Source: Candidatus Multivoradales bacterium (lineage in GTDB: Bacteria > Acidobacteriota > Thermoanaerobaculia > Multivoradales > JAHEKO01). From it: a stretch of 64,000 nt of DNA. The stretch lies in NCBI GenBank assembly GCA_965223855.1, contig CBDCXM010000003.1, positions 32,001 to 96,000 on the forward strand, in the 5' to 3' direction. The position numbers were made by a program, and so were the translations under genes. The notes beneath the pieces are model-generated. The model was not told the DNA's origin. It did not search any database and saw only the letters and a list, made by a program, of their open reading frames with translations. Within the stretch, counting starts at the first letter, position 1, and each line of letters opens with the position of its first letter. Of the stretch, positions 17,054-37,208 are shown one piece after another.

Positions 17054-18751
17054 CTACGACGATCGACCTCTTCTGCGACGAGCCTCGAACGCACGTCGAG
17101 TAAAGCCGAGCATCTCTTCCCCCTCCGGATCCAACTCCCAATCGATCCAGGTAGTCTCGTTGTCCTGGCAGTAGGGGTTGTTGTTGCCCCCCTGCGTGCG
17201 GCCGAGCTCGTCGCCGTGCGAGAGCATCGGAACCCCCTCGGTGCGCGCGAGCGTCGCCATCATCGCCTTGCGGACGCCGAGGCGCAGTCGGCGGACCCGC
17301 TGGTCGCTACTCGGGCCGTCGGCTCCCCAGCCGGAACTGTGGTCGTGGTCGGAACCGTCGCGGTTGTCCTCGCCGTTTGCGAGGTTGCGCTTCCGGCGGT
17401 AGGTGACGAGGTCGGCGAGGGTGAAGCCGTCGTGGGCGGTGACGTAGTCGATCGACGTCGTGCGAGGGCGGCCCGGGAACAGGTCGAGGCTGCCGCCGAG
17501 GCGCGCCGGCAGTTCGCGGGCGGCTCCCGCGTCTCCGCGCCAGAAACGGCGGGTGGTGTCGCGGAAGCGGTCGTTCCACTCGCGCCAGCCGTGGGGGAAG
17601 CGGCCGAGGGTGTAGCCGCCAGGGCCGAGATCCCACGGCTCGGCGATGAACTTCGTGTGCGCGAACACCGGATCGGCAGCGAGGCGGCGGAAGAAGCGCG
17701 CCGCCGGATCGAAATCGACCGGGTCACGACCGAGGACGGGGGCCAGATCGAACCGGAAGCCGTCGACGTGCATCTCCTCGACCCAGTACCGGAGGCTCTC
17801 GAGGATCAGCGAGCAGGCGGCATCGCTGGAAGCATCAACGGTGTTGCCGCACCCCGTGAAGTCCAGGCAGCGGCTCCGGTCGTCCGGCCGCGACCGGTAG
17901 TAGGCGGGGTTGTCGAGCCCTCGCAGCGTCACCGTAGCGCCGTCCTCGGCTCCCTCGGCGGTGTGGTTGAAGACGACGTCGAGCAACACTTCGAGGCCGG
18001 CGTCGTGGAGCGCCCGGACCATGATCTTGAACTCCTCGATCTCGCGACCGGGAACCGAGGCGTAGCCGGCGTGAGGCGCGAACCAGGCGAGCGGGTTGTA
18101 GCCCCAGTAGTTGGTGAGGCCCAGCGGCGCGAGGTGACGCTCGCTCGCGTGATGCTGCACCGGGAGGAGCTCCACCGCTGTGACGCCGAGGGCGAGCAGA
18201 TGTTCGATCACCGCATCGTCGGCGAGTCCGAGGTAGCTGCCCCGCCGGGCGGTCGGAACCTCGGGGTGGAGCCGGGTGAGGCCGCGGACGTGCGCCTCGT
18301 AGATCACCGTCTCCTCCCACGGCGTTCGCGGCGGTCGATCGTTCCGCCAGTCGAAGGCGGGATCCACGACGACCGATCGCGGCACGAAGGGAGCGCTGTC
18401 GAGACCGCACCGCTCGCTGCCGTACGGGCCGGCGGCGCCAAAGCCATGGATGGCCGGATCCCAGATGAGCGATCCCTCGACCGAACGCGCCCAGGGATCG
18501 ACCAGCAGCTTCGCCGGGTTGCATCGATGGCCCGCGGCGGGCTCGTAGGGACCGTCGACCCGGTAGCCGTAGCGCTGTCCCGGGCCGGCACCCGGTAAGG
18601 TCCTCGTCCACAAGCCGCGACTCTCCGCCATCGGCAGCCGCTCGGCCTCGCCGCCGTCCGCGTCGAACAGACACAGGTCGATCGCCGTCGCCACGCTCGA
18701 GGGGACGGCGAACTCGACGGCTTCTCCGGTCCAGCGCGCGCCGGGTCGCAA
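17054..18751 (-). CDS. glgX: Glycogen debranching enzyme (isoamylase, GH13), short C-terminus
   Basis: NPAKLLVDP, NYWGYNP, DVVFNHTAEG, GFRFDLA, AEPWD, AHDGFTL, GDELGRTQGGNNNPYCQDN; start approximate. Confidence 0.93.
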   Translation of the reverse strand: MRPGARWTGEAVEFAVPSSVATAIDLCLFDADGGEAERLPMAESRGLWTRTLPGAGPGQRYGYRVDGPYEPAAGHRCNPAKLLVDPWARSVEGSLIWDPAIHGFGAAGPYGSERCGLDSAPFVPRSVVVDPAFDWRNDRPPRTPWEETVIYEAHVRGLTRLHPEVPTARRGSYLGLADDAVIEHLLALGVTAVELLPVQHHASERHLAPLGLTNYWGYNPLAWFAPHAGYASVPGREIEEFKIMVRALHDAGLEVLLDVVFNHTAEGAEDGATVTLRGLDNPAYYRSRPDDRSRCLDFTGCGNTVDASSDAACSLILESLRYWVEEMHVDGFRFDLAPVLGRDPVDFDPAARFFRRLAADPVFAHTKFIAEPWDLGPGGYTLGRFPHGWREWNDRFRDTTRRFWRGDAGAARELPARLGGSLDLFPGRPRTTSIDYVTAHDGFTLADLVTYRRKRNLANGEDNRDGSDHDHSSGWGADGPSSDQRVRRLRLGVRKAMMATLARTEGVPMLSHGDELGRTQGGNNNPYCQDNETTWIDWELDPEGEEMLGFTRRAFEARRRRGRSS

Positions 18752-18765
18752 GGTCCGGGAGTCGC

Positions 18766-20244
18766 TCAGCCCCGCCTCCCCTCCCGACGGCGCCCGCTGT
18801 CGGCAATCCAGCCGCCGAGTCGCTCGAGACTCGCAGCTTCGAGTGTGCGGTCGAGGCGCCAGTTCCAGTTGCCCTCGGTCGTGCCCGGGACGTTCATCCG
18901 CGCCGCATCCTCCAGTCCCAGGACATCCTGGAGCGGTAGGACGACGAGCTCTGCCCTGCTTTCCAGGAGACGTGCGATCAGCCGCTGCGCCAGTTCGTCG
19001 TCGGCCGCGGCGCCGCCGGCGTAGCTCTCGACTCGCACGCGCGTCGCGCTGTCGAGGGTCGCAAGCCAGCCTCGCAGGGTGGCGTTGTCATGGGTACCGC
19101 TGTAGGCGACCGTGTCGCGGCCGTAGCGCTCCGGGTGGTGCTCGCTCTCTTCCTCGTCGAAACCGAACTGCAGCACCCGGGTGCCGGGAAGGCCGAGGTC
19201 ACGGCGCAGCTTGCGCACCGCGGGGGTGATGACCCCGAGATCCTCGGCGATGAACTCGAGACCGCCGAGCTCGGGCTCGACCGCCCGGAAGAGCGCTCGT
19301 CCAGGCCCGCGTTGCCAGCTCCCGCCGCGCGCATCCTCGGCCGGCAACGGTGTCCGCCACCAGGCGAGGAAGCCGCGGAAGTGGTCGAGGCGCAGCAGGT
19401 CGAAACGTCGCGCATGAAGGCGGATCCGCCGCCGCCACCAGAGGAAGTCGCTCTCGCGATGTCGGTCCCAGCGGTAGACCGGGTTGCCCCACAACTGGCC
19501 GTCGTCGGTGAATGCGTCGGGCGGCACTCCCGCGACGGCCACCGGAGCGCCGTCTTCGGCCAGCTCGAAGAGCTCCGGGTGCGCCCACACATCGGCGCTG
19601 TGGTGGGCGGGGTAGATCGGCAGATCGCCCAACAGCCCGACGCCGAGGTTTCCGGCCTCCGCTTGCAACGCGGCGAACTGCCGGTCGAACAGCCACTGGA
19701 GGAATTGCCGATACCCGATCTCGTCGGCGAACTCGCGACGCGCGTGGGCGAGCGCCGAGGGGTCGCGGTGCGCCAGCTCTTCGGGCCAGCGATGCCACGG
19801 ATCGGGGGCGAGCTTCGCGTCGAGGGCGGCGAAGAGCGCCCAGTCGTCGAGCCAGGAGCGCTGCTCCTCGGCAGTGCGGAACGCCTCGAAGGTGTCTCGC
19901 TGCGCGCTCGAGCCGCGAACCACGAACGTCTGCCAGGCGAGCCTCAGCAGGGCGTCGATCGAGTCGTCGCCGGAGCCGCCTCCGGCTTGCCGACGTTCGA
20001 GCAGCCCTTCCTCGACCAGCCTGTCGGGCGAGATCAACCGCGAATCGCCGGCGAAGGCGGAGCGCCCGTCGTAGGGCGATCCGAACGGGCCCGGCACGGT
20101 CAGCGGCAGCATCTGCCAGACGCCGACGCCCGCTCCGGCCAGGGTCTGCAGGAAGCGCGACGCCTCCGGCCCCAGGTCGCCGGTGCCGCGCGGGCCGGGC
20201 AGCGAGGTCGGGTGCAGCAGAATGCCAGTGGCGCGTCCGCGCAT
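18766..20244 (-). CDS. malQ: 4-alpha-glucanotransferase (amylomaltase, GH77)
   Basis: GILLHPTSLPG, GVPPDAF..GQLWGNP, RLDHFRG, IAEDLG, GTHDN, RMNVPG...GNW.WR. Confidence 0.95.
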   Translation of the reverse strand: MRGRATGILLHPTSLPGPRGTGDLGPEASRFLQTLAGAGVGVWQMLPLTVPGPFGSPYDGRSAFAGDSRLISPDRLVEEGLLERRQAGGGSGDDSIDALLRLAWQTFVVRGSSAQRDTFEAFRTAEEQRSWLDDWALFAALDAKLAPDPWHRWPEELAHRDPSALAHARREFADEIGYRQFLQWLFDRQFAALQAEAGNLGVGLLGDLPIYPAHHSADVWAHPELFELAEDGAPVAVAGVPPDAFTDDGQLWGNPVYRWDRHRESDFLWWRRRIRLHARRFDLLRLDHFRGFLAWWRTPLPAEDARGGSWQRGPGRALFRAVEPELGGLEFIAEDLGVITPAVRKLRRDLGLPGTRVLQFGFDEEESEHHPERYGRDTVAYSGTHDNATLRGWLATLDSATRVRVESYAGGAAADDELAQRLIARLLESRAELVVLPLQDVLGLEDAARMNVPGTTEGNWNWRLDRTLEAASLERLGGWIADSGRRREGRRG

Positions 20245-20367
20245 CAGCCGGGGATCATATGCTCCGCCCGCGGCGCGGAACGTGGCAAAGTCGCGTTCCG
20301 GGAACACCCGCGCTCGGACACGGCGCACCGCAGCAACGAGGGCAGATCGGCAAGGAGGCAGGGACCA

Positions 20368-22575
20368 GTGTCAGCAGGATCTCCGCGCATCGCGGTCAGT
20401 CAGGCTCACGAGATCCGCATTCCGGCGGCGCTCGACGGCCTCTACGAGCTCGCCCACAACCTCTGGTGGAGCTGGAACTCCGACGCCCAGGCCCTCTTCT
20501 CCTCGCTTCACAGCTGGGCGTGGTCGCACTACCAGAACCCGGTGGAGGTGCTTCACGCCGTCGACGATCAGCGCTGGGAGACCCTGCTCGCCGATGAGAC
20601 CTTCGTGCAGCGGGCGTCGGCCGTGCTCAGGGACTTCGAGAGCTACCTCGCCGGCGAGGGTGACGGCGAGTTCTCCCGCCGCTGGCCGGACTACGACGCC
20701 GGAGCGATCGCCTACTTCTCGATGGAGTACGGCCTTCACCAGAGCCTGCCGCTCTATTCGGGAGGTCTCGGCGTACTGTCGGCCGACCAGCTCAAGAGCG
20801 CCAGCGACCTCGGCCTGCCGTTCGTCGGGCTGGGTCTCCTCTACCGCTCCGGCTACTTCCAGCAGACGATCGACGCCGAAGGGCTGCAGCAGCACTCCTA
20901 CCCGAATTGCGACTACCGGCGGGTCGGCGTCCGCCCGGTCGCCAATCGCAGCGGCGGCGCGCTGGTGGTGGAAGTGCCGTTCCCCGGCCGCAAGGTGGCC
21001 GCCAAGGTGTGGCTGCTCTCGGTGGGCCGCGTGCCGCTGCTGCTGCTCGACACCGACGTGCGGCTGAACGATCCCGCCGACCGGCCGATCTCGTCCGTGC
21101 TCTACGTGCGGGGGCGCGAGATGCGACTGGCGCAGGAGCTGCTGCTCGGTGTCGGTGGTGCGATGGCGCTCGAGGCGCTGGGAATCGAGCCGGCCGTCTG
21201 GCACCTCAACGAGGGGCACAGCTCGCTGCTGCAGCTCGAGCGCTTCCGGCGCCGCACCGGCGGCGACGGCGATCAGCTCGACGAAGCCCTCGCCGACTGC
21301 CGCGAGCGCACCGCTTTCACTCTCCACACTCCGGTTCCCGCCGGCCACGAGACCTTCGACCGCGTCCTCGCCGCCAAGTGCCTGGCACCCTGGTCCGAGC
21401 TGCTGGGGGCCTCGACCGAGCGGCTGCTCGCTCTCGGCGACGCCGATCCGGCGGGCGGCGAAGGGCCGTTCAACCTGACGGCGCTGGCGCTTCGAACCAG
21501 CAGCTTCGTCAACGGCGTCAGTCGGCTCAACGCAGAGGTGAGCGACCCGAACTGGCGTCACATCCGTGCCGAGACCGGCTCTGCGGCTCCGCCCATCCGG
21601 GCGATCACCAACGGCGTCCACCTGCCGACGTGGATGGGGATGGAGATCAGCGATCTGCTGGCGAGGGAACTCGACGCCGACTGGGTGCGCGCCGACGCCG
21701 ACGAGAGGATCGGCGCCGTGGCCTCGCTGCCCGACGCCGAGCTGTGGCGCGCCCACCGGCAGCAGAAGGAGCGTCTCGCCGCCTTCGCGCACGGCCGGCT
21801 TCTCGACCAGTACGCGCGCCATGGCCGTTCTCCGGATCGGCTCCGCTCCCTGCGAGGCCTCGTCGATCCGGAGGTGCTCACCATCGGCTTCGCCCGGCGT
21901 TTCGCCACCTACAAGCGCGCCGACCTCCTGTTCAGCGATCTCGACCGGGTTCGCAAGCTCCTCTGTCACTCCCAGAGGCCGATCCTCGTCATCTTCGCCG
22001 GCAAGGCGCACCCGATGGACCGGCCAGGCCAGCAGCTGATCCAGCGCATCTTCGGCCTCAGCCAGGACGCCGACCTCGGCCGCCGGGTGCTGTTCCTCGA
22101 GAACTACGACCTGCTCGTGGGCGCGCGACTCGTCCAGGGGGTCGACGTGTGGCTCAACACGCCGCGGCGCCCGCTCGAGGCGAGCGGCACCAGCGGCATG
22201 AAGGCGGCGGTCAACGGCGTCCTCAACTGCAGCATCCTCGACGGCTGGTGGCCGGAGGCGTTCGACGGCGCCAACGGCTGGGCGATCGACGGCGGCAGCC
22301 ACGACGACGAGGCGGCGCAGGACACGGCTGACAGCCTGGCGCTCTACGAGACACTCGAAGAGCACGTCGCGCCGCTCTACTACGAGCGTGACGAGGAAGG
22401 GCTGCCGCGGCGCTGGCTGGCGATGATGAAGCGCTCGATCGCCACCGTCGCCCCGGCGTTCTCGTCCGACCGGATGATGCTCGACTACATCGAACAGGCG
22501 TATCTGCCGCTCGTTCCCGCCGACGCCGACTCCGCGGCGGCGACTGCATCCGCCAGCGGCAGCCGGCGGAGCTGA
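20368..22575 (+). CDS. glgP: Alpha-glucan (glycogen) phosphorylase, GT35
   Basis: LAHNLWWSW, AYFSMEYG, YSGGLG, HLNEGH, GFARRFATYKR, PLP motif EASGTSGMK; AAGGAGG RBS at 20352-20358 before GTG 20368. Confidence 0.95.
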   Translation: MSAGSPRIAVSQAHEIRIPAALDGLYELAHNLWWSWNSDAQALFSSLHSWAWSHYQNPVEVLHAVDDQRWETLLADETFVQRASAVLRDFESYLAGEGDGEFSRRWPDYDAGAIAYFSMEYGLHQSLPLYSGGLGVLSADQLKSASDLGLPFVGLGLLYRSGYFQQTIDAEGLQQHSYPNCDYRRVGVRPVANRSGGALVVEVPFPGRKVAAKVWLLSVGRVPLLLLDTDVRLNDPADRPISSVLYVRGREMRLAQELLLGVGGAMALEALGIEPAVWHLNEGHSSLLQLERFRRRTGGDGDQLDEALADCRERTAFTLHTPVPAGHETFDRVLAAKCLAPWSELLGASTERLLALGDADPAGGEGPFNLTALALRTSSFVNGVSRLNAEVSDPNWRHIRAETGSAAPPIRAITNGVHLPTWMGMEISDLLARELDADWVRADADERIGAVASLPDAELWRAHRQQKERLAAFAHGRLLDQYARHGRSPDRLRSLRGLVDPEVLTIGFARRFATYKRADLLFSDLDRVRKLLCHSQRPILVIFAGKAHPMDRPGQQLIQRIFGLSQDADLGRRVLFLENYDLLVGARLVQGVDVWLNTPRRPLEASGTSGMKAAVNGVLNCSILDGWWPEAFDGANGWAIDGGSHDDEAAQDTADSLALYETLEEHVAPLYYERDEEGLPRRWLAMMKRSIATVAPAFSSDRMMLDYIEQAYLPLVPADADSAAATASASGSRRS

Positions 22576-25007
22576 TGCGGCTGCTGAGCCGCGCGGCGAG
22601 GCTCCGGTACGGGCTCGACGAACTCTCCGTCGCCTCGTCCGCCCGGGTGCGGCAGCTGGCGCACGCGATCAACCAGGCGCGCGGGGGCACGCCGTTCGTA
22701 CACGCCGGCGAGCTCGAGGCATTGCGAGTCCTCGAGCAGCTGCTCACCGGCGCACTCGAGCACGGCCTCGACACGGAGCGGGACGCCGCGCTCGATGCAA
22801 CGCTGGCCGCCCTCGAGAAGGAGCTCGGAAGAGAGGGGCTCTCGAGCCTGCTGGCGGGTCTCGAGAAAGAGTTCGACGCGGCTGCGACGGAGTCGATGGA
22901 CTCTGCGGACTCCGCGGACCGGCGACCGCGCGATGCCGCGACCGAACGACGGGCGGTGCTCGAACTCTTCGTGCTGTGGCAGCTCAACCGCAACCCGGCT
23001 CTCGCCGCGGTGCGGGAGCTGATCGACGACCGGGCACTCGCGCCCGATCTCTACGACCGGGCGATGGCGACCGTGGAGCGCCAGCTCCGCACCCGCACGA
23101 GCAGGGGGGTGCCGCTCGCCGGCGATCTGATCGATCTGATGGAGGCGCCCGCGCGTGCGCAACCGGAGTCGATCGCCGGCCAGCTCGCCCTCTACCTCGA
23201 CCAGCCGACCGAAGATCTCGGGGTCGCCCGCGAAGAGCTCGAGCGGGTTCTCGATTCGTTGGCGGAGGAGCGGCCGCGCCTGCCGCCGGGCCCCCCGGGA
23301 CCGCCGCCTGAAAGCGAGCGGTCCGCTCCGGAGCCGGTGGTCTACGCGCGGCCGCCGCGCGAGGAGCCGCGCTGGATGCGGGAGCTGGTGCTGGGGGCGA
23401 GGAACGCCCACGTCTGGCTCGATCAGCTGGCGCGCTCGACCGGGCGCGAGATCGCCCGGCTCGATCAGGTGCCCGAGGCGGAGCTCGCGCGCCTCGCTGA
23501 ACTCGGCCTGACGGCGGTCTGGCTGGTCGGCGTGTGGCAGCGAAGCCCCGCCTCGCGCGCCATCAAGAGACGCTGCGGCAATCCCCGAGCCGAAGCCTCC
23601 GCCTACGCGATTTCCGACTACGGCGTGGCCGAGGACCTCGGCGGCGACGAAGCGCTCGCCGGGCTGCAGGAGCAGGCCCTCGAGCACGGTCTCCACATCG
23701 GCGTCGACGTGATCCCGAATCACTGGGGGCTCGACTCACGCTGGGTCGTCGAGCACCCGGAGCGCTTCCTTTCGACGGACGAGTGCCCGTTCCCCAACTA
23801 CACCTTCGAGGGCGAGGACCTGTCTGCCGACCCGGAGATCGGGATCTACCTCGAGGATCACTACTACGACCGCAGTGACGCCGCCGTCGTCTTCCGGCGG
23901 CTCGATCGGTCGACGGGACGCGAGACCTTCCTCTACCACGGCAACGACGGCACGACGATGCCGTGGAACGACACCGCGCAGCTCGACTACATGCAGCCGG
24001 ACGTGCGCAAGGCGATGACCGACCTCATCGTCGATCTCGCACGCCGCTACCGGATCCTGCGCTTCGACGCCGCCATGACCCTGACCCGGCTCCATTTCCA
24101 GCGACTGTGGTTCCCCGCTCCGGGCGACGGCGGCGCGGTGCCGTCGCGCAGCGAGCACGGCATGAGCAAGCAAGCGTTCGAGCATTCGATGCCGACCGAG
24201 TTCTGGAGCGAGGTCGTCACCCGAGTCGAGCAGGAGGCGCCCGACACGCTGCTCCTCGCCGAAGCGTTCTGGCTGATGGAGCCCTACTTCGTGCGCACCC
24301 TCGGCATGCACCGGGTCTACAACTCGGCGTTCATGCACCTGATGCGTGAGCGCGAGAACCCGCGCTTCCAGGCACTCCTGGCCGACACCCTCGAGCACGA
24401 TCCCGAGCTCGCCCGGCGCTCCCTCAACTTCATGACGACGCCGGACGAAGCGCCCGCGGCCCACGGCTTCGGTCGCGACGACCGCTATTTCGGCACGACG
24501 GCGTTGATGGCGACCCTGCCGGGACCGCCACTCTTCGGTCACGGCCAGTTCGACGGCCTGACCGAGCAGTACGGGATGGACTCCCTGCGACAGCAGTTGG
24601 ACGAAACTCCGGACCCCGCCGTGGCCGAACGCCACCGCCGCGAGGTCGCCCCGCTACTGCGCGAGCGCGCGAGATTCGCCGACGTCTCCCGGCTCGAACG
24701 GCTCGAGTTCGTCGGCCCCGGCGACCACGTCTGGCAGGACGTCTACGCCTTCGCCTCGGGAGCGAGCTCCGAGCTTCGACTGGTGCTCTTCAACAACTCG
24801 GCGGCCGACGTCGCGGGGAGGGTTCGGGCACCCGCAGGCTCGGACCTGGCCGACCTGCTGCCGGTGGAGGGCACCGTGCTCCGGCTGATCGACCCGCGCC
24901 TCGACTTCGATCTCGAGGTTCCCGTGACCGAAGCCGCGGGGCGGGGGCTGCCCATCGAACTCGCCCCGTGGCAGGCGTTGGTCCTCGAGCCCGCGGCCGT
25001 CAGATGA
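22575..25007 (+). CDS. GH13 alpha-amylase family protein with helical N-terminal extension
   Basis: ASAYAISDY..DLGG, DVIPNH, PWNDTAQLDY, catalytic RFDAAM / AEAFW / TPDE; TGATG coupling to glgP. Confidence 0.87.
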   Translation: MRLLSRAARLRYGLDELSVASSARVRQLAHAINQARGGTPFVHAGELEALRVLEQLLTGALEHGLDTERDAALDATLAALEKELGREGLSSLLAGLEKEFDAAATESMDSADSADRRPRDAATERRAVLELFVLWQLNRNPALAAVRELIDDRALAPDLYDRAMATVERQLRTRTSRGVPLAGDLIDLMEAPARAQPESIAGQLALYLDQPTEDLGVAREELERVLDSLAEERPRLPPGPPGPPPESERSAPEPVVYARPPREEPRWMRELVLGARNAHVWLDQLARSTGREIARLDQVPEAELARLAELGLTAVWLVGVWQRSPASRAIKRRCGNPRAEASAYAISDYGVAEDLGGDEALAGLQEQALEHGLHIGVDVIPNHWGLDSRWVVEHPERFLSTDECPFPNYTFEGEDLSADPEIGIYLEDHYYDRSDAAVVFRRLDRSTGRETFLYHGNDGTTMPWNDTAQLDYMQPDVRKAMTDLIVDLARRYRILRFDAAMTLTRLHFQRLWFPAPGDGGAVPSRSEHGMSKQAFEHSMPTEFWSEVVTRVEQEAPDTLLLAEAFWLMEPYFVRTLGMHRVYNSAFMHLMRERENPRFQALLADTLEHDPELARRSLNFMTTPDEAPAAHGFGRDDRYFGTTALMATLPGPPLFGHGQFDGLTEQYGMDSLRQQLDETPDPAVAERHRREVAPLLRERARFADVSRLERLEFVGPGDHVWQDVYAFASGASSELRLVLFNNSAADVAGRVRAPAGSDLADLLPVEGTVLRLIDPRLDFDLEVPVTEAAGRGLPIELAPWQALVLEPAAVR

Positions 25008-29646: not shown

Positions 29647-29719
29647 CCTGAACTTCCTACCAACTTCCTGCTGAGGCTATGCTTGCCGCTCCTCACGGGT
29701 ACGAAGAAAGGTAGCGGGA

Positions 29720-30958
29720 ATGATTCGGAAGATCGGGTTGTCGCTGGGCGCCGACGTCTGCTGGCCGCTGTGCTACGAGGAGCTCATCCGGCAGCTCGAT
29801 CTCGCGCTGCCGATCGGCGACGATGTCGTCAGTTTCGCCGTCGAGCGGGTGATGATCGAGCCGTTCCGCCTCCAGGGACCCTGTCCCTACGACGTGGTGC
29901 TCGACCGGCTCACCCACTGGTACTACCCGAGTCGGGAGTGGATCAAGAAGGCGGTCGTCATGGACGACCTCTACGTCTTCAACAACCCGTGGTCGATCCA
30001 GTCGATGGAGAAACAGACCACCTACTGCGCGATGATGCGCCTCGGTCTGCCGGTGCCCGACACCTGGATGGTGCCCCCCAAGTCGTACGAGCCGAAAGCC
30101 GATCTCGAGCCGACGCTCAGGCGCTACGCCAGGCTGTTCGACCTCGGCGAGGTCGGCGAGCGTCTCGGCTATCCGCTCTTCATGAAGCCCTACGACGGCG
30201 GCGCCTGGGTCGGCGTGCAGAAGATCGACGACGAGGAACAGCTGCGCGCCACCTACGAGGAGAGCGAGACCAAGCTCATGCACCTGCAGGCGGCGGTCGA
30301 GCCGTTCGACCTCTTTGTCCGCGCCCTCGGGATCGGCCCCCAGGTCCGGCTGATGCGCTACGACGCCGGGGCGCCGCTCCACGCCCGCTACGAAGTCGCG
30401 CGCGATTTCGTGGAGCCGGACGAGGCGCGTCTGCTCGAGGACATCGCGCTCACCATCAACACCTTCTTCGGCTGGGACTTCAACTCGTGCGAGACGATGC
30501 GCTCGAACGGCACCTTCCACCCGATCGACTTCGCCAACGCCTGCCCCGACTCGCAGGTGACGAGCCTTCACTACCACTTCCCGTGGCTGATCGGCGCCCT
30601 CTTGCGCTGGAGTCTCTTCTGCGCCGCCACCGACCGGCCGATGCGCAAGACGCTGTCGTGGGAGCCCTACTACGAAGTGGCGGACCGGGGTCTGCCCTAC
30701 CGTGAGCGCCTCGCCGCCTACGGCGCGATCGCCCGCGAGCGACTCGAAGCCGACCGTTTCGAGGAGTTCTGCGCGACCCATCTCGGCCGACTCGACGAGG
30801 TGCTGACCGACTTCTTCGCCACCGACTTCGCGAAGGACGCCGTGCGCCAGAAGGTCGAGGTGCTCTTCCCCGAGCACGAGCATGACGAGTTCACCGACTA
30901 CTTCTGGGAGCGGATCCAGCAGTGGCGGGCCGAGGAAGGAGCGGGAGCCGCATCATGA
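29720..30958 (+). CDS. RimK/glutathione-synthetase-like ATP-grasp ligase
   Basis: VVLDRLTHW, NNPW...EK, GLPVPDT, GYPLFMKPYDGGAW, LQAAV, NSCE, IDFANACPD. Confidence 0.85.
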   Translation: MIRKIGLSLGADVCWPLCYEELIRQLDLALPIGDDVVSFAVERVMIEPFRLQGPCPYDVVLDRLTHWYYPSREWIKKAVVMDDLYVFNNPWSIQSMEKQTTYCAMMRLGLPVPDTWMVPPKSYEPKADLEPTLRRYARLFDLGEVGERLGYPLFMKPYDGGAWVGVQKIDDEEQLRATYEESETKLMHLQAAVEPFDLFVRALGIGPQVRLMRYDAGAPLHARYEVARDFVEPDEARLLEDIALTINTFFGWDFNSCETMRSNGTFHPIDFANACPDSQVTSLHYHFPWLIGALLRWSLFCAATDRPMRKTLSWEPYYEVADRGLPYRERLAAYGAIARERLEADRFEEFCATHLGRLDEVLTDFFATDFAKDAVRQKVEVLFPEHEHDEFTDYFWERIQQWRAEEGAGAAS

Positions 30959-31683
30959 AACTGCGCACCGACTGGTACTCGCAGCACCTCCAGCAGACCC
31001 TGGCGATCGTGCGCTGGGGTCACTCCGGCACCCCGGTGCTGCTGTTTCCCACCGCCGGTGGCGACGCCGAGGAGTGTGAGCGCTTCCTGATGATTCAGGT
31101 GCTCTCGCCGCTGCTGGAAGCGGGCCGGATCAAGATCTACTCGTGCGACAGCATCGCCGGCCGCGCCTGGACCTCGCGCGAGGGGACGGGAGCCCACCGC
31201 GCCCGGGTGCAGACCCGCTGGGACCGCTTCATCGCCGACGAGCTCGCCGGCGCGATCCGCAAGGACTGCAACAGCCCGGAGATGGAGATCGTCACCGCCG
31301 GAGCGTCGATCGGCGCGTTCGCCGCGGTCTCGACGCTCTGCCGCCATCCCCACATCTTCAAGACCGCGATCGGGCTCTCCGGCACCTACGACCTCTCCCG
31401 CTGGCTCGACGGCGAGTGGAGCGACGACTTCTACTTCGCCTCACCCCTCCACTACCTTCCCGGCCTCGACGGCGGCCCGCAGCTCGAGAAGCTCCGTGAG
31501 CGCTTCGTGCTGCTGGCGACCGGCGAGGGGCAGTGGGAGGCGCCGGAGGAGAGCTGGCGGATGGCCGGCGTGCTGGGCGACAAGGGAGTCCCCAACCGGG
31601 TCGACGCCTGGGGCCCGGACTACGACCACAACTGGCCGACGTGGCGCGAGATGCTGCCCAAGTACCTCGCCGAGCTCACCTGA
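30955..31683 (+). CDS. Small alpha/beta-hydrolase esterase (PF00756-like)
   Basis: WGHSGTPVLLFPTAGG, GASIG, LSGTYD, WG..YDHNWPTW; ATGA overlap with the RimK-like gene. Confidence 0.87.
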   Translation: MKLRTDWYSQHLQQTLAIVRWGHSGTPVLLFPTAGGDAEECERFLMIQVLSPLLEAGRIKIYSCDSIAGRAWTSREGTGAHRARVQTRWDRFIADELAGAIRKDCNSPEMEIVTAGASIGAFAAVSTLCRHPHIFKTAIGLSGTYDLSRWLDGEWSDDFYFASPLHYLPGLDGGPQLEKLRERFVLLATGEGQWEAPEESWRMAGVLGDKGVPNRVDAWGPDYDHNWPTWREMLPKYLAELT

Positions 31684-33115
31684 GTCGGCTGTAGAGGTCG
31701 AGGTAGAGCGGCCCCTGCCGCTCCCAGGAGAAGTCCTGCGCCATGCCGCGAGCGACGAGCTCGCGCCAGCCGGCCGGATCGGCCCAGGAGTCGAGGGCGT
31801 AGTCGATCGCCCAGCGCAGCCCCTCGGCGTCGAAGCTGTCGAAGACGAAGCCGGTGCCGGTGTTGCGGGAGCGGTCGTAGAGCTCCACCGAATCCGCGAG
31901 ACCGCCGGTCTTGCGCACCACCGGCACGGTTCCGTAGCGCAGCGAGTACATCTGCGTCAGCCCGCACGGCTCGAATCGTGACGGCACGAGGAAAAGGTCG
32001 GCCCCGGCGTAGATCCGGTGCGCCAGCGGGTTGTCGAAACCGTTGCGGAAGTGCACCCGGCCCGGGAAGTGGCGGGCAAGGCTGTGGAAGAACTCCTCGT
32101 AGCGGCGCTCGCCGCTGCCGAGCACGACAACCTGGCAGGGGCGGCGACCGAGCACCGACGGTAGCGCCTCGAAGCACAGGTCGAACCCCTTCTGCGCCGT
32201 CAGCCGCGAGACGATGCCGATAAGCGGCAGCTCGGCGTCGGTCGACAGCCCCGCCTCCTCGCACAACGCCCGCTTGTTCCACGCCTTCCCCTCGAGATCG
32301 GCTGCCGAATAGGAATGCGGCAGGAAGCGATCCGTCGCCGGGTTCCACTCGCCGTAGTCGACCCCGTTGAGGATGCCTACCAGGTCGCCGGAGCGCGCTC
32401 GCAGCAACGGGTCGAGGCCGAAGCCGAACTCCGGGGTCCGGATCTCCCTGGCGTGGGTCGGACTCACCGTGGAAAGTCCGTCGGCGTGCAGGAGCCCGGT
32501 GGTCATGAAGTTGATCCGACCGCGGCCGAGCTCCTCCTGGTGGAGCTGCCCTCGCGCCTGGGACAAGCCGAGCGCTTCGACCTCGCGCGCCGGGAAGATC
32601 CCCTGGTAGCCGAGGTTGTGGATCGTCAGGAGCGTCCTGGTGCGGGCGAAGAGCGAGTCCCACCGGTAGTGGGCCCGCAGGTAGAGCGGCAGCATTGCCG
32701 TGTGCCAGTCGTGAACGTGGAAGACGTCCGGGCCGAACCCCATCCGCTGGCATGACTCGATCACCGCGCGGACGAAGAAGCTGAAGCGCAGGTGCTCGTC
32801 CCCGCGATCGTCGTAGATGCCGGCGCGGTCGTAGAGCGCAGGACAGTGGATCAGGTAGACCGGCAGCGAGCTGCCGGGCAGCGGCGCCGTGTGGACGCTC
32901 CATTCGACCTGCCGCCCCGCCACCTCGGTGTGGATGCCCTGGAGGAACTCGACCGGCACCCACCCCTCGACCTTCGCGCTCGAGTAGTGCGGCAGGAAGA
33001 GCCGCAGATCGACGCGCTCGTCGTGGAGGAAGCCGGCGAGGCCGGCGACCGCGTCTCCGAGCCCACCGGTCTTGGCGAACGGCGCCAGTTCGGAGGCGAG
33101 CAGACAGATCTTCAC
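31676..33115 (-). CDS. glgA: Glycogen synthase (GT5)
   Basis: ASELAPFAKTGGLGD, HVHDWH, TIHNLGYQG, GILNG.D, SRLTAQKG, PSRFEPCGL.QM. Confidence 0.97.
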   Translation of the reverse strand: MKICLLASELAPFAKTGGLGDAVAGLAGFLHDERVDLRLFLPHYSSAKVEGWVPVEFLQGIHTEVAGRQVEWSVHTAPLPGSSLPVYLIHCPALYDRAGIYDDRGDEHLRFSFFVRAVIESCQRMGFGPDVFHVHDWHTAMLPLYLRAHYRWDSLFARTRTLLTIHNLGYQGIFPAREVEALGLSQARGQLHQEELGRGRINFMTTGLLHADGLSTVSPTHAREIRTPEFGFGLDPLLRARSGDLVGILNGVDYGEWNPATDRFLPHSYSAADLEGKAWNKRALCEEAGLSTDAELPLIGIVSRLTAQKGFDLCFEALPSVLGRRPCQVVVLGSGERRYEEFFHSLARHFPGRVHFRNGFDNPLAHRIYAGADLFLVPSRFEPCGLTQMYSLRYGTVPVVRKTGGLADSVELYDRSRNTGTGFVFDSFDAEGLRWAIDYALDSWADPAGWRELVARGMAQDFSWERQGPLYLDLYSRLR

Positions 33116-33166
33116 GACCGCGGACTATGGCAGATCGGCGCTTCGGACACGTAGACTCCCCGAATC

Positions 33167-34387
33167 GTGAACGTCGCCTTCGTGGCCCCCTATCTCCCGC
33201 CGACGACGCTGCGCTTCGTCCGTGCGGCCCAGAAGCTCCCCGGCGTGCGCCTCGGCCTGGTGTCGCACGACCCGGTCGAGCGGATTCCCGACGACGTGAG
33301 GGAGCGGCTCGCCGGTCACTGGCGGATCGACAACGCTCTCGACGCCGGCCAGCTGGAGGCGGGAGCGCGCGGGCTCGCCGAGCAGATGGGCGGGCTCGAC
33401 CGGCTGATCGGCATTCTCGAGCACATGCAGGTGCCGCTCGCCCGCGCCCGCGAGGCGTTGGGGATTCCCGGCCTCGGGCTGGAGGCGGCGCTCAACTTCC
33501 GCGACAAGGCGCGGATGAAGACGGTGCTGCGCGAAGCGGGGCTGCCGTGCGCTCGCCACGGCCTCGCCGCCGACCTCGACGCGGCGCGCGTGTTCGCGGG
33601 CGCCACCGGCTACCCGCTGGTCGTCAAGCCGCCGGCCGGCGCCGGTGCGGTCGGCACCTTCCGGGTCGACGACGAGCGCTCGCTCGCCGAGGCGATCGGC
33701 GTGCTGCGGCCGACCGCGGACCAGCCGGCGATGCTCGAGGAGTTCGTGGTCGGCGAGGAGCACTCGTTCGACAGCGTCTTTGTCCGCGGGCAGCCTGTGT
33801 GGCACTCGCAGACGCGCTACCTGCCGACCCCGCTCGAGGTGCTGCGCAACTCGTGGATCCAGTGGTGCGTGCTGCTGCCGCGCGAAGCGGACCAACCCGA
33901 GCACGACGACATCCGCGACGCCGCCTATCGCGCCGTCGAGGTGCTGGGTCTCGAAACCGGCCTGACGCACATGGAGTGGTTCCGGCGGCCAGACGGCTCG
34001 CTGGCGATCTCAGAGGTCGCCGCGCGACCGCCGGGGGCGCAGATCACCACCCTCATCTCCGTCGCCCACGACATCGACTTCTACGAGACCTGGTGCCGGC
34101 TGATGATCGAGGAGGCGTTCGATCCGCCGTATCGGCGCTATGCCGCCGGCGCCGCCTTCCTGCGCGGCCAGGGGGGCGGGCGGGTCGCCGCGGTGCGCGG
34201 TCTCGAGCAGGCGCAGCAGGCGGTCGGCGACCTCGTCGTCGAGGCGCGGCTGCCGCGCGAGGGTCAGCCCAAGGCTTCGAGCTACGAGGGCGAGGGCTAC
34301 GTGATCGTCCGCCACTCGGAGACCGAGAAGGTCGTCGAGGCGCTGCGCACCATCGTCTCGACGATCCGCGTGGAGATGTCCGGCTGA
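33167..34387 (+). CDS. ATP-grasp ligase B (paralogue of 26297-27523)
   Basis: RDKARMK, GYPLVVKPPAGAG, EEFV.G, THMEWF, SEVAARPPG, YEGEG.VIVRH. Confidence 0.88.
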   Translation: MNVAFVAPYLPPTTLRFVRAAQKLPGVRLGLVSHDPVERIPDDVRERLAGHWRIDNALDAGQLEAGARGLAEQMGGLDRLIGILEHMQVPLARAREALGIPGLGLEAALNFRDKARMKTVLREAGLPCARHGLAADLDAARVFAGATGYPLVVKPPAGAGAVGTFRVDDERSLAEAIGVLRPTADQPAMLEEFVVGEEHSFDSVFVRGQPVWHSQTRYLPTPLEVLRNSWIQWCVLLPREADQPEHDDIRDAAYRAVEVLGLETGLTHMEWFRRPDGSLAISEVAARPPGAQITTLISVAHDIDFYETWCRLMIEEAFDPPYRRYAAGAAFLRGQGGGRVAAVRGLEQAQQAVGDLVVEARLPREGQPKASSYEGEGYVIVRHSETEKVVEALRTIVSTIRVEMSG

Positions 34388-35604
34388 TGCGCGTCCTGAT
34401 GCTCGCCCCCGCCTTCCCGTCGGAGATGCCGTTCTTCGCCCGCGGTCTGGCGAGCGTCGGCGCGAAGGTGGTCGGCGTCGGCGACCAGCCGGTGGCGGCG
34501 CTGCCGTCGCAGACCCGCGAGGCGCTCGACGACTATCTGCAGGTGCCGACGCTCTTCGACAGCGGCGCCGTCCTCGACGCGGTGCGCTCCTACCACTCGC
34601 GAGCGCCGATCGAGAAGGTCGAGACCCTGTGGGAGCCGCTCGTCCTGCTCGCCGCCGAGTTGCGTCAGGCGCTAGGCCTGCCCGGACTTACGGTCGCCCA
34701 GGCGCACGCCTTCCGCGACAAGGAGCGGATGAAGCAGGTGCTCGAAGAGGCCGGCCTTCGGGTGCCGCGGCACTCGAAGGAGAGCACCGCCCGCGGCTGC
34801 TACGAGGCGGCCGAGAGCATCGGCTTCCCGCTCATCCTCAAGCCGATCGCGGGTGCCGGTTCGGCCGACACCTACCGGGTCGACGATCGGGGCGAGCTCG
34901 ACGCCGTCATGCCGTTGCTGCGCCACGTGCCGGTGGTCTCGGTCGAGGAATTCATCGATGGCGAGGAGTACACCTTCGACACCATCTGCGCTGGCGGCGA
35001 GGTGCTCTACCACAACGTCTCCTGGTACCGGCCGCGGCCGCTGGTGGCCCGCACCGTCGAGTGGATCAGCCCGCAGACGGTGACCTTGCGCGACGTCGAG
35101 CGGCCCGAGCTGGCGGCGGGCGTGAAGCTCGGTCACGGGGTGCTCGAGGCGCTCGGCTACCGCGACGGCTTCACCCACATGGAGTGGTTCCGCACCTCCG
35201 AGGGAGAAGCGGTCTTCGGCGAGATCGGCGCCCGACCTCCGGGAGCGCGGTCGGTCGAGATCATGAACTACGCCTGCGACATCGACGTCTTTTCGGGCTG
35301 GGCCGAGGCGGTGGTGCACGGGCGTCTCAGCCAGCCGATCGAGCGGCGCTACAACAGCGCCATCATCTTCAAGCGGGCGAAGGGGCGCGGCCGCATCACC
35401 GGCATCACAGGCCTGGAAGGCTTCCTCACCCGCTTTCATCGCCACGTCGTCTCGGTCGAGCTGCTGCCGCCGGGGACGCCGCGCCGCAACTGGAAGAGCA
35501 CGTTGCTCTCCGACGGCTGGGCCATCGTGCGTCATCCCGACCTCGGGGCGCTGCTCGAGATCGCCGACCGTTTCGGCACCGACGTCCAGATGTACGCCGA
35601 GTAG
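34387..35604 (+). CDS. ATP-grasp ligase C (paralogue)
   Basis: TGATG-coupled start; RDKERMK, GFPLILKPIAGAGS, EEFIDG, THMEWF, GEIGARPPG, RHPD. Confidence 0.88.
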   Translation: MRVLMLAPAFPSEMPFFARGLASVGAKVVGVGDQPVAALPSQTREALDDYLQVPTLFDSGAVLDAVRSYHSRAPIEKVETLWEPLVLLAAELRQALGLPGLTVAQAHAFRDKERMKQVLEEAGLRVPRHSKESTARGCYEAAESIGFPLILKPIAGAGSADTYRVDDRGELDAVMPLLRHVPVVSVEEFIDGEEYTFDTICAGGEVLYHNVSWYRPRPLVARTVEWISPQTVTLRDVERPELAAGVKLGHGVLEALGYRDGFTHMEWFRTSEGEAVFGEIGARPPGARSVEIMNYACDIDVFSGWAEAVVHGRLSQPIERRYNSAIIFKRAKGRGRITGITGLEGFLTRFHRHVVSVELLPPGTPRRNWKSTLLSDGWAIVRHPDLGALLEIADRFGTDVQMYAE

Positions 35605-35660
35605 GACGGCACTGCTAGCCTGAACTTTCAAAGTCACACGAACACCGCGGGGGAGCAACG

Positions 35661-37208
35661 GTGAGGGAATCCGAAACGACCGCCGGGAAGGATGAGAGCA
35701 TCCGCGACCTGCTGTCGGTCTGGAAGCTGGTCGAGAGCGAGGAGCGCACCGGCTACACCTCGATCGTCGTCCCGTCGCTGTCGCTCGACGTCGACGAGCT
35801 CAAGAAGATCCGCGGCGCCTCCGGGTACGAGGAGCGGCTGCTCTTCACCCTGATCCGCCTGCGCGACCCGCGCGCCAGGGTGGTCTACCTCACCAGCCAG
35901 CCGCTCCACCCCGAGATCATCGAGTACTACCTCGACCTGCTGCACGGCGTCTCGACACGCGACGCCCGGGAGCGGCTGACGCTGCTGCCGCTTTACGACT
36001 CGAGCGCCGCGCCGCTGACCGCCAAGGTGCTCGAACGGCCCCGCGTCGTCGCAAGACTGCGGGACCTGGCCGCGCGCACGACCCACTCCTACCTGACCTG
36101 CTTCAACTCGAGCGAGCTCGAAGCGCGCCTGGCACGGGAGATAGGGGTGCCGCTCAACGGAGTCGCACCCGAGCTGCTCGACCTCGGCACCAAGTCGGGC
36201 AGCCGCAAGGTGTTCGCGGCAGCCGGCCTCGACATGCCACGAGGGTTCGAGGACATTCGCAGCCGCGAGCAGGTGATCGAAGCCCTGTCGAATCTGCGCG
36301 ACGCCGAGCCGGACATCCGCAAGGCGGTCGTCAAGCTCGACGAGAGCTTTGCCGGCGCCGGTAACGCGGTGTTCCGCTACCCGCCGGCGGAAGGGAGCAT
36401 CGAGGAGGCACTCGGTCGGCTCGAGTGCGCGAGTGCCGAGGAGACCCACGAACACTTCCTCGCCAAGCTCGATGACAAGAGCGGCATCGTCGAGGAGTTC
36501 ATGGAGGCCTCCGAGGTGCGCTCACCGAGCGCCCAGCTCCGCATCGGTCCGGCAGGCGACATCGATCTCATCTCGACCCACGAGCAGATCCTCGGCGGCA
36601 GCACGGGGCAGACCTACCTGGGCTGCCGCTTCCCGGCCGACCCCGCCTACCGGCGTCGGCTGGGCGAGTTGGGGTACAAGGTCGGCGAGGTACTGCGCGA
36701 CCGCGGCGTGGTGAGCCGCTTCGGCGTCGACTTCCTCGCCTTCCGCGGCGCCGACGGCGAGTGGAAGCTGCCGGCGATCGAGATCAACCTGAGGATGGGG
36801 GGCACCACCGGGCCGTTCCTGGCGCTCCAGTTCCTCACCTCGGGCGCGGTCGATCCCTCGACCGGCCTCTACCGCTCCGCCACCGGGATCGAGAAGTTCT
36901 ACGTCGCCACCGACAACCTCAGCTCCCCCTCCTACCGCGGCCTGCTGACGGAGGACTTCATGGACATCCTCGCCGGCAGCCGCGTCGGCTTCGACCCGGC
37001 GAGCGAGACCGGCGCGGTGTTCCACATGATCGGCTCGCTGTCGCAGTTCGGCAAGATGGGCGTGACTGCCATCGGCGACAGCCGCGAGCAGGCCGACGAG
37101 ATCTACCACCAGGTGATCGAGGTGTTCGATCGCGCCGGCGAACCCGACCCGGGCATCGCGCCCGATTCGATGCACCCGTTCGACCTGGCGATCCGGTCGA
37201 TCGAGTAG
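35661..37208 (+). CDS. Peptide ligase PGM1-related ATP-grasp protein
   Basis: YEERLLF.LIRLR.PRARVVYLTSQP pre-ATP-grasp region, GTKSGSR, SPSAQ, STHEQILGG, YLGCRFPA, FGVDF, EINLRMGGTT, YVATDN. Recalled as the family named after the pheganomycin ligase PGM1. Confidence 0.8.
   Translation: MRESETTAGKDESIRDLLSVWKLVESEERTGYTSIVVPSLSLDVDELKKIRGASGYEERLLFTLIRLRDPRARVVYLTSQPLHPEIIEYYLDLLHGVSTRDARERLTLLPLYDSSAAPLTAKVLERPRVVARLRDLAARTTHSYLTCFNSSELEARLAREIGVPLNGVAPELLDLGTKSGSRKVFAAAGLDMPRGFEDIRSREQVIEALSNLRDAEPDIRKAVVKLDESFAGAGNAVFRYPPAEGSIEEALGRLECASAEETHEHFLAKLDDKSGIVEEFMEASEVRSPSAQLRIGPAGDIDLISTHEQILGGSTGQTYLGCRFPADPAYRRRLGELGYKVGEVLRDRGVVSRFGVDFLAFRGADGEWKLPAIEINLRMGGTTGPFLALQFLTSGAVDPSTGLYRSATGIEKFYVATDNLSSPSYRGLLTEDFMDILAGSRVGFDPASETGAVFHMIGSLSQFGKMGVTAIGDSREQADEIYHQVIEVFDRAGEPDPGIAPDSMHPFDLAIRSIE

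Follow-up and report, generated by a model that had tools for sequence, protein, structure and literature searches.

The enzymes of bacterial glycogen metabolism, GlgC, GlgA, GlgB, GlgP, GlgX and MalQ, are regarded as a closed set. What, then, are ATP-grasp ligases, esterases and a peptidase doing among the genes of this set? The question is raised by a stretch of 64,000 nucleotides from Candidatus Multivoradales bacterium (Acidobacteriota; Thermoanaerobaculia), which spans positions 32,001 to 96,000 of contig CBDCXM010000003.1 (assembly GCA_965223855.1) and is referred to here, at its full length, as the window. Its glycogen cluster contains, beside the glycogen synthase gene glgA and other glucan genes, five ATP-grasp genes (agA, agB, agC, agR and a PGM1-like gene), two esterase genes (est1 and est2) and the gene of an S51-like peptidase (S51). 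An earlier interpretation, made from the letters of the window and called the sequence-only reading below, held that these ligase, esterase and peptidase genes are tied to the glg genes and are not neighbours by chance. This core claim is strongly supported by the neighbourhood counts reported here, according to which the homologues are strongly enriched beside glg genes in several phyla. In members of at least four phyla, the sole glycogen synthase gene found is embedded among four or five ligases and three hydrolases, and this is best explained by an accessory system to ADP-glucose-dependent synthesis of alpha-glucan (glycogen) that is conserved and has spread horizontally.

Linkage of the ligase and hydrolase genes to glgA

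Linkage was probed from four anchors, i.e. the PGM1-like gene, agR, agB and agA. Among 80 agA-anchored metagenome loci, 32 contain glgA. Where at least 1.5 kb of upstream sequence is available (49 loci), the next gene is glgA in 21 cases, 19 of them on the same strand, S51 in nine, agB in seven, est2 in four and a gene from outside the system in eight. Where the flank extends over at least 8 kb (30 loci), glgA is present in 19, and the remaining 11 hold other system genes. The partners of the glgA-agA pairs, in which glgA precedes agA, are a few bases apart and on the same strand. Moreover, agA lies directly upstream of glgC on the same strand in the window and in L002, and likewise of a GH13 gene in L114 and L135, where this gene is the orthologue of the one encoding the 810-residue GH13 protein of the window. 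The genes glgB, glgC and malQ flank the glgA-agA pair in L175, L178, L186 and L208; they also flank agA at the contig start in L180, with no glgA in view. The adjacency is kept in at least seven gene orders, which are distributed over Acidobacteriota, Gammaproteobacteria, Gemmatimonadota and Eiseniibacteriota. A random gene would be expected to adjoin glgA in far under 1 in 100 cases, a figure that is estimated from gene counts rather than computed and that treats related genomes as if they were independent.

A sample of 401 genomes of the phylum, in which orthologues of agR were called at 60% identity or above, gave a concordant picture: an agR orthologue was identified in 12 genomes and an agB orthologue likewise in 12; 11 genomes carry both, and 13 carry either gene. 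Three unpublished genomes (G024, G049 and G152) enter only the agR tally, the glgA tally of the same sample and, with one locus, the set of agR-like paralogues described further below; none of the specific conclusions rests on them. The 11 agR loci outside the window contain est1 without exception, S51 in ten (the other is cut by a contig end), est2 in six and agA in five. In the agB loci of eight of the 12 genomes, the immediate neighbour is glgA or glgC. In five genomes S51, est1 and agR form a stand-alone module, and the single glgA of each of them is found beside agA and/or the agB-agC pair. Overall, a glgA or glgA-like gene is located within 1.5 kb of agA, agB or agC in 11 of the 13 system genomes; the remaining two are G244, whose assembly is fragmented, and G083, where a partial system lies at the start of a contig. 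This count includes a glgA-like gene of 34% identity in G282, a genome in which agC is followed by two tandem agB-type genes with the glgA-like gene directly upstream (L124/L134, C59:96874-100519).

From the PGM1-like anchor, the 80 best genome loci were collected and searched by tblastn with the window proteins; 15 of them contain glgA, 18 agA, 16 agC, and 12 each agB, S51, agR and est2. All nine system genes are present in eight of these loci, in orders that differ from that of the window: one locus is from Thermoanaerobaculia (L003), six are from Gammaproteobacteria (L006, L016, L021, L025, L030 and L037, among which L021 and L037 belong to Woeseiaceae and L016 to Lysobacterales) and one is from Gemmatimonadota (L029). 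By manual count, an alpha-glucan gene lies at most 10 kb from the PGM1-like gene in 24 of the 80 loci. Among these 24, the PGM1-like gene is directly preceded by glgB (L045) or by glgC (L002 and L080, the latter from a cyanobacterium), or neighbours a GH57 gene (L062, L065 and L079). Taken together, the counts from the four anchors show that agA, agB, agC, agR, S51, est1 and est2, with or without the PGM1-like gene, co-occur as one system, that this system is physically tied to glgA through many rearrangements, and that the linkage of its ligase and hydrolase genes to glg genes is beyond chance.

As to the quality of the loci, most system genes of L006, which lies on a 1.9-Mb contig of a gammaproteobacterial metagenome-assembled genome, are split into several tblastn pieces in different frames. 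These breaks look like frameshifts, possibly uncorrected long-read errors and not decay.

The history of the linkage was read from a tree of 38 GlgA sequences, in which those linked to the system in Acidobacteriota, Gammaproteobacteria and Eiseniibacteriota fall into a single group (support 100/100, stem 0.47). The gammaproteobacterial sequences are nested within the acidobacterial members of this group, and 19 other acidobacterial GlgAs from genomes lacking the system fall outside it. The gemmatimonadotal cluster in L029 is accompanied by a GlgA of another lineage, only 40% identical; this different partner indicates a separate recruitment. In most cases, then, the system travelled accompanied by its own GlgA; on at least one occasion it settled beside another. 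In the 401-genome sample glgA as such is present in 266 genomes, as compared to all 13 of the system genomes. The sole row without the system that is sister to the system-linked group comes from G119 (L225), a 100%-complete genome of the window's own family, in which the search of the 401 genomes found no agR or agB orthologue; this genome may have lost the system.

Is the linkage nevertheless functionally empty, that is, are the genes for ligases and hydrolases simply carried along next to glg genes as passengers of a mobile block? Their patchy spread over 12 of 401 genomes, their high identity across phyla (55-80%) and the nesting of the gammaproteobacterial GlgAs, which fits horizontal transfer, are what such a block would produce. 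We nevertheless consider this explanation very improbable, given that the seven or more gene orders all keep the adjacency, that glgA stays with agA or agB-agC where the system is split, that a different GlgA lineage stands beside the cluster in Gemmatimonadota, and that the profiles of agR and agB coincide in 11 of the 13 genomes carrying either.

The GlgA encoded in the cluster is predicted to be the glycogen synthase of its host. A profile search of the genome scored it at 523.7 bits, within the range of about 520-586 bits observed across the phylum, and T16, G17, G18, L19, R304 and K309 are invariant and K15 nearly so across 17 system-linked GlgAs; we take the KTGGL motif to be the N-terminal nucleotide-sugar motif of GlgA, and the Arg and Lys to be conserved residues of its C-terminal domain. 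The possibility that the clustered gene is a divergent paralogue beside a housekeeping copy was rejected, as a single glgA match is present in the window's own genome and in each of five relatives checked. Single match, ordinary score and retained motif residues together mark it as the predicted glycogen synthase of the organism and not a side copy. These data also bear on a different role for the enzyme, in which the linked GlgA clade glucosylates an acceptor built by the ligases, yielding a small peptide metabolite that bears glucose, for example a compatible solute or low-molecular-weight thiol, whose esters or thioesters are cut by the esterases. The linked GlgAs are indeed a distinct clade on a long stem; the combination of an agR-like ligase with a GCS2 ligase (glutamate-cysteine-ligase family) in the paralogous gene set described below resembles two steps of glutathione synthesis; and family PF00756, to which both esterases belong, includes S-formylglutathione hydrolase, weak matches to TIGR02821 (fghA_ester_D) having been seen. 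However, a GlgA of ordinary score that keeps its motif residues, is the sole copy in six genomes and sits with glgC, glgB, malQ, glgP and glgX makes a switch to metabolite glucosylation unlikely.

Ligases and hydrolases of the system

By sequence, agA, agB and agC belong to the L-amino-acid-ligase group of the ATP-grasp superfamily, which predicts ligase activity for all three. The closest solved relative of agA is the L-amino acid ligase 4wd3 (E-value 7.8e-16), the three proteins are about 33% identical to one another, and agA orthologues from different phyla are 56-80% identical to the window's protein. The C-terminal domain 2 of L-amino-acid ligases (PF18603) was matched by agB at 24.2 bits, under the cut-off of 29.4 bits, and not by agA or agC, while the cyanophycin synthetase model TIGR02068 gave only 27.2-34.0 bits with the three proteins as compared to a cut-off of 850 bits.

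The fourth ligase, agR, is more divergent and is, judging from its predicted fold, assignable to the ATP-grasp superfamily only. PF07478 is its sole Pfam match and stays under the cut-off, and the best Ddl model of NCBIfam reached 24.2 as compared to 262 bits. In Foldseek searches with the structure model (mean predicted local distance difference test, pLDDT, 88; a helical C-terminal extension of about 100 residues), VanA (3se7) came first, followed by ArgX (3vpb)/LysX, Ddl, RimK and DcsG about equally, with query-normalized template modelling scores (TMq) of 0.39-0.50. K156, E258, D270 and N273 are invariant in the alignment of orthologues. The sequence-only reading had called this protein RimK-like: the assignment as an ATP-grasp enzyme stands, whereas the RimK label is too loose, the fold being equally near VanA, Ddl and ArgX/LysX. 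Amide-forming, ester-forming and protein-modifying relatives were thus not told apart by the fold searches. VanA forms an ester bond, which shows that ester formation is within the reach of this subgroup.

The resemblance of agR to ArgX/LysX and RimK, which is about as good as that to Ddl and VanA, raises the question of whether the ligases modify a protein, i.e. add amino acids to GlgA, a primer or a carrier, much as RimK acts on S6 and LysX on LysW, with the hydrolases removing the tag; PGM1, too, ligates onto peptide N-termini. However, a conserved acidic C-terminal tail of the kind present in RimK and LysX substrates was not found in 17 system-linked GlgAs (15 complete, two cut by locus ends), the intergenic gaps in the window are too short to accommodate a small carrier gene, and agA, agB and agC are placed in a group whose known members use free amino acids. 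We therefore regard protein modification as quite unlikely.

The fifth, PGM1-like ligase has three PGM1-type domains above their cut-offs (pre-ATP-grasp, IQCH-like ATP-grasp and PGM1_C). The model NF042917 for BesA, an L-propargylglycine--L-glutamate ligase, was matched at 154.1 bits, far under its cut-off of 750 bits. It is a facultative member of the system, since its gene is absent from three of five system genomes checked and from all 30 of the long agA metagenome loci, and present in one of the 80 loci of that kind. Thousands of relatives about 55% identical to the protein occur across phyla.

In 18 of the 80 PGM1-anchored loci (including L028, L033, L036 and L040), no glg gene is near and the gene directly upstream encodes an unnamed protein of about 390 residues, F1, for which no Pfam match and no solved relative by sequence at E-values up to 1 were found. 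By its Atlas features F1 is like a class-I glutamine amidotransferase or C26 peptidase, which serves as a lead only. Four of these 18 loci also carry lanthipeptide dehydratase genes.

Turning to the hydrolases, est1 and est2 are classified by sequence as esterases of the PF00756/CE1 type that retain the catalytic Ser and His. In the orthologue alignments, G256-x-S258-x-G260 and H358 of est1 are invariant, as are G127-x-S129-x-G131 and H236 of est2 (numbered from a start at 30922). The structure model of est1 (pLDDT 89.1) comprises an Ig-like/CBM48-like N-terminal domain and a CE1/PF00756 domain, and Foldseek aligned it with the CBM48+CE1 feruloyl and acetyl-xylan esterases 7b5v, 8bf3 and 6rzn at E-values of 1e-24 to 1e-22. 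The S51-like protein covers profile positions 47-158 of 206 only in its match to PF03575 and has a long helical insertion. S51 peptidases, a family that comprises cyanophycinase and dipeptidase E, employ a Ser-His-Glu triad. In the window's protein Ser203 is kept in 20 of 21 aligned orthologues (Ala in L029), and His217, Glu228 and Gly175-Gly176 are invariant. As no solved structure related by sequence was found at E-values up to 0.1, Ser203, His217 and Glu228 remain triad candidates that lack an alignment to a solved S51 structure. Known or candidate catalytic residues are thus kept in the orthologues of est1, est2, the S51-like protein (save Ser203 in L029) and agR, and their active sites look intact.

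Fusion proteins connect two of the hydrolases. Among relatives of est1 that exceed it in length, 54 were found at E-values up to 1e-30, of which 52 have 691-840 residues and are 47-65% identical to est1, the other two being 30-33% identical. Two of these long relatives were inspected, and both have an N-terminal S51-like domain, 42% and 46% identical to the window's protein; several represent clusters of 6 to 11 sequences. On these grounds, S51-est1 fusions are common, and such a fusion implies that both domains act on one substrate containing an amide and an ester (or thioester) bond. The long relatives (P0129-P0180) stem from genomes as well as metagenomes, some of the records bearing the labels Planctomycetota and Actinomycetia, and the precomputed Pfam annotation flags S51 in only four of them. 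Longer relatives of agA were also seen, namely a double ATP-grasp, two proteins joining agA to an esterase and a predicted GlgA+agA protein; each is a single sequence and counts as weak evidence.

Possible products: a peptide unit on alpha-glucan or a separate reserve

What could such a set of enzymes make? The sequence-only reading gave two answers, an acyl or peptide group that is put on alpha-glucan and taken off again, and a peptide reserve of its own that shares regulation with glycogen. We infer that an ester bond is part of the product and that the three hydrolases break the product down. Some functional coupling of the system to GlgA-dependent glucan metabolism is probable. More specifically, we tentatively put first the reading that a peptide or aminoacyl unit is built by the ligases, linked through an ester to the alpha-glucan made by GlgA, and removed by the hydrolases. 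In this reading, four or five ATP-grasp enzymes would activate carboxylates by turning them into acyl-phosphates, and from these put together an aminoacyl unit or short peptide, agA, agB and agC acting as amino-acid ligases and the PGM1/BesA-like enzyme perhaps adding an optional cap. The VanA/Ddl-like agR, or else a CE1-type esterase working as an acyltransferase, would ester the unit onto a hydroxyl of alpha-glucan or maltooligosaccharide, from which the S51-est1 pair and est2 would detach and degrade it. The outcome would be a reversible decoration that tunes the solubility, nitrogen content or degradability of the reserve polymer. In this full form, i.e. a reversible, ester-linked amino-acid or peptide decoration of storage alpha-glucan that is written by the ATP-grasps and erased by S51-est1 and the second esterase, the proposal is possible but doubtful.

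The proposal draws on the same-strand glgA-agA pairs, the CBM48+CE1 fold of est1, the S51-est1 fusions and the position of VanA as top match of agR. Attachment to glucan is ranked first because glgA, glgC and GH13 genes persist as neighbours of agA, because a second GlgA was recruited, and because est1 has the architecture of a carbohydrate esterase.

Several points weigh against it. Only two of the 11 agR loci outside the window have glg genes nearby (L114 and L121), and in the other nine none is present within about 10 kb. The highest whole-chain similarity of est1 is to the enterobactin esterase Fes (TMq 0.70-0.72; 0.72 for 3mga), which cleaves seryl esters and not carbohydrate esters; est1 scored 103.4 bits with the Fes equivalog NF007758, under the cut-off of 222 bits. 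A recognized starch-binding module was not found in these genes, save the CBM48-like N-terminal domain that est1 has in common with Fes. One GlgA clade could have been inherited with the ligases through transfer of the entire block, with no shared substrate involved, and the lone GlgA+agA fusion (P0123) is possibly a frameshift or gene-calling artefact. The use of free amino acids by the known L-amino-acid ligases counts in the same direction, and we know of no peptide-esterified glycogen.

The strongest argument against an obligatory glucan substrate is provided by a paralogous system that is independent of glg genes. Paralogues of agR about 30% identical to it occur in 120 of the 401 genomes. 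At 18 loci of such agR-like genes, an est2-like neighbour is present in nine and an est1-like one in three. Ten larger loci show a usual order of an est1-like gene, then, divergently, an est2-like gene, an agR-like gene, a gene for a GCS2 carboxylate-amine ligase (in nine of the ten) and two genes for M29-type aminopeptidases (the pair in five of the ten). The esterase pair and the agR-type ligase are thus the core of a wider class of ligase/peptidase/esterase systems, and since the paralogous set occurs without glg genes, the esterase/ATP-grasp chemistry needs no glucan. This set was seen in Acidobacteriota (L094, L098 and L235-L244), where the agR-like protein has 310 residues and a LuxR-type response regulator is encoded nearby at times.

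It is therefore nearly as likely that the product is a separate, free peptide or depsipeptide, i.e. a reserve or osmolyte with amide and ester bonds that S51-est1 and est2 mobilize, and whose genes are co-regulated with the glg genes and travel with them as a block. This possibility follows close behind glucan decoration. Besides the paralogous set with its esterases, ATP-grasp, GCS2 ligase and M29 aminopeptidases, it accommodates the S51 family membership of the peptidase (the family of cyanophycinase and dipeptidase E, matched above the Pfam cut-off), the presence of builders and breakers in one cluster as in reserve-polymer loci, the single amide- and ester-containing substrate implied by the S51-est1 fusions, the whole-chain proximity of est1 to Fes, and the frequent location of the S51-est1-agR module apart from glgA. 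On the other hand, co-regulation alone would rarely hold a same-strand glgA-agA pair together through many rearrangements and phyla, nor does it account well for the second GlgA lineage recruited in Gemmatimonadota or for the position of agA directly upstream of glgC or GH13 genes, on the same strand, in different lineages. Furthermore, the cluster has no enzyme of the Mur-ligase or polymerase type, the cyanophycin synthetase scores being those given above.

A product on the glucan would mean that there are modified storage polysaccharides of a new class, and that ATP-grasp enzymes have acceptors of a new kind; if the decoration is real, glycogen would be a joint reserve of carbon and nitrogen, or a polymer whose solubility or breakdown is switched chemically. 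A free product would mean a new reserve of non-ribosomal peptide or depsipeptide that is coupled with the storage of carbon. In both cases the gene set is a defined one, and the linkage gives a working context to the widespread PGM1-like family, to three families of L-amino-acid ligases and to the common S51-esterase fusion.

Gene map of the window and comparison with known systems

The window has a G+C content of about 69%, as a consequence of which long spurious open reading frames (ORFs) are common, and genes were fixed by third-position G+C, start-codon scans, and Pfam and NCBIfam scans. All 14 genes named in the sequence-only reading, i.e. the glucan genes, five ATP-grasps, two esterases and the S51-like peptidase, are present (Table 1), and its spacings proved exact: agA and glgC are 22 nucleotides apart on the same strand, glgA and agB diverge from a gap of 51 nucleotides (33116-33166), and est2 and glgA overlap convergently by eight nucleotides.

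Table 1. Genes of the glycogen cluster in the window, with their profile matches (scores in bits).
Gene and product	Position	Strand	Size and profile matches
glgX (glycogen debranching enzyme)	17054-18751	-	565 residues; TIGR02100 776.6, cut-off 640.9; CBM_48 and Alpha-amylase domains
malQ (4-alpha-glucanotransferase, GH77)	18766-20328	-	PF02446 485.5; NF011080 556.4
alpha-glucan/maltodextrin phosphorylase (DUF3417 + Phosphorylase)	20368-22575	+	TIGR02094 755.8
GH13-family protein, specificity not assigned	22575-25007	+	810 residues; PF00128 39.1
glgC (glucose-1-phosphate adenylyltransferase)	25000-26274	-	NF002772 583.8, cut-off 537
agA (L-amino-acid-ligase-type ATP-grasp)	26297-27523	-	408 residues; PF02786 40.9, cut-off 19.8
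S51 (S51-like peptidase)	27554-28495	+	313 residues; PF03575 30.5, cut-off 23.9
est1 (two-domain esterase)	28492-29646	+	384 residues; PF00756 81, cut-off 22
agR (divergent ATP-grasp)	29720-30958	+	412 residues; predicted fold; Dala_Dala_lig_C (PF07478) 22.0, under cut-off 24
est2 (single-domain esterase)	30955-31683	+	PF00756 35.2, cut-off 22
glgA (ADP-glucose-type glycogen synthase)	31676-33115	-	TIGR02095 526.1, cut-off 328.45
agB (L-amino-acid-ligase-type ATP-grasp)	33167-34387	+	406 residues; PF02222 40.7, cut-off 27
agC (L-amino-acid-ligase-type ATP-grasp)	34387-35604	+	405 residues; PF18130 34.2, cut-off 27; PF02655 29.8, cut-off 23.2
PGM1/BesA-like ATP-grasp peptide ligase	35661-37208	+	515 residues; PF24923 86.7, cut-off 27; PF18105 44.5, cut-off 22.5; PF18604 31.2, cut-off 27.5

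The start codons of agA (GTG at 27523) and S51 (ATG at 27554) leave a divergent gap of 30 nucleotides (27524-27553), and a further divergent gap of 39 nucleotides is present at 20329-20367. S51 and est1 overlap by four nucleotides; est2 most likely starts with ATG at 30955, overlapping the agR stop by four nucleotides; and the start of agC lies on the stop of agB, an overlap of one nucleotide. The 30-nucleotide gap contains the A/T-rich sequence TACTATAAA just 5' of the S51 start codon. The short divergent gaps and TACTATAAA suggest leaderless transcripts and overlapping divergent promoters. Four sequencing runs, all from one study, carry 27554-37208, and no RNA run is among those listed. The cluster proteins look cytoplasmic, neither signal peptides nor membrane segments being revealed by a crude scan. 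The flanks look unrelated to the cluster: a transcription regulator with OmpR-type winged-helix and TPR domains is encoded directly upstream (15116-17032, + strand), and hflX followed by housekeeping genes downstream.

Some features of the glucan genes deserve mention. GlgX matches positions 7-569 of 688 only of TIGR02100, the usual C-terminal domain apparently missing, and the short ORF that immediately follows it on this strand (16707-17141) is without a Pfam match. The Atlas neighbours of the 810-residue GH13 protein are unnamed clusters of the alpha-amylase family with no specific name. Searches of the organism's 92.5%-complete assembly for a branching enzyme, made with TIGR01515, with PF03065/GH57, and by tblastn with a GlgB and a GH57 protein taken from other loci, were negative, TIGR01515 giving a weak match only, on glgX. 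Either the gene lies in the missing part of the assembly, or the 810-residue GH13 protein branches the glucan, or the glucan is unbranched. Prediction of a GlgA-agA complex returned 'no answer' with a score of 0.00 in two runs, which is evidence neither way.

How does the system compare with what is known? A full-text search found no published account of a combination of ATP-grasp or L-amino-acid-ligase genes with glycogen synthase and esterase genes; a 2009 survey of amidoligases (Iyer et al.) was outside its reach. Each of the enzyme families is known, their combination is not. Cyanophycin metabolism (CphA, CphB) shares the logic of builder and breaker, with ATP-grasp ligation and an S51-family hydrolase in one locus. 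In contrast, the cluster described here has several stand-alone ligases instead of one CphA polymerase and no Mur-ligase-like domain, and it is distinguished by two esterases, the linkage to glgA and an S51-like protein with a long helical insertion. The L-amino-acid ligases RizA (4wd3), BacD (3wnz) and BL00235 (3vot) resemble agA, agB and agC in fold and in family-level sequence signal. Known enzymes of this kind sit in antibiotic or secondary-metabolite clusters, together with export or resistance genes and outside any reserve-polymer context, whereas the paralogues found with glgA here number three, share about 33% identity and are each conserved at 55-80% between phyla. The fifth ligase is akin to the PGM1/BesA peptide ligases through its three PGM1-type domains, with the score for the BesA equivalog below the cut-off. 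Similarly, agR has VanA and D-Ala-D-Ala ligases as its top fold matches and keeps the ATP-grasp Lys, Asp, Glu and Asn, but differs from them in TM-scores of only 0.44-0.50, in a Dala_Dala_lig_C match under the cut-off and in the extra C-terminal helical domain of about 100 residues. As regards est1, the two-domain architecture, the Ser of the GxSxG motif and the His are shared with CBM48+CE1 esterases (7b5v, 8bf3, 6rzn, 6ne9) and with Fes (3mga, 2b20), from which it differs in being only 19-23% identical, in its cytoplasmic appearance and in its frequent fusion to an S51-like peptidase. These two nearest models act on very different esters, that is on carbohydrate esters and on seryl esters, respectively.

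At the level of the polymer, two systems offer parallels. In starch phosphorylation, glucan, water dikinase, whose nucleotide-binding domain is of the ATP-grasp type, acts as writer, and phosphoglucan phosphatases act on its product. This is a write/erase cycle on alpha-glucan that governs solubility and breakdown, as proposed here; unlike in that cycle, homology to PPDK-type dikinases and a phosphohistidine domain are missing from the present system, and the erasers are serine esterases and a peptidase instead of phosphatases. If the decoration is real, it would be a bacterial counterpart to the starch phosphorylation cycle that relies on entirely different chemistry. The second parallel is mycobacterial methylglucose lipopolysaccharide (MGLP), which is described as an intracellular glucose polymer partly esterified by short-chain acids (PMC4555173). 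MGLP carries fatty acyl groups introduced by acyltransferases instead of ATP-grasp products, and involves another gene set in another phylum. It nonetheless sets a precedent for dedicated enzymes that place ester substituents on the glucose units of an intracellular glucan, similar to the arrangement considered here, in which ATP-grasp ligases would supply the ester-linked unit.

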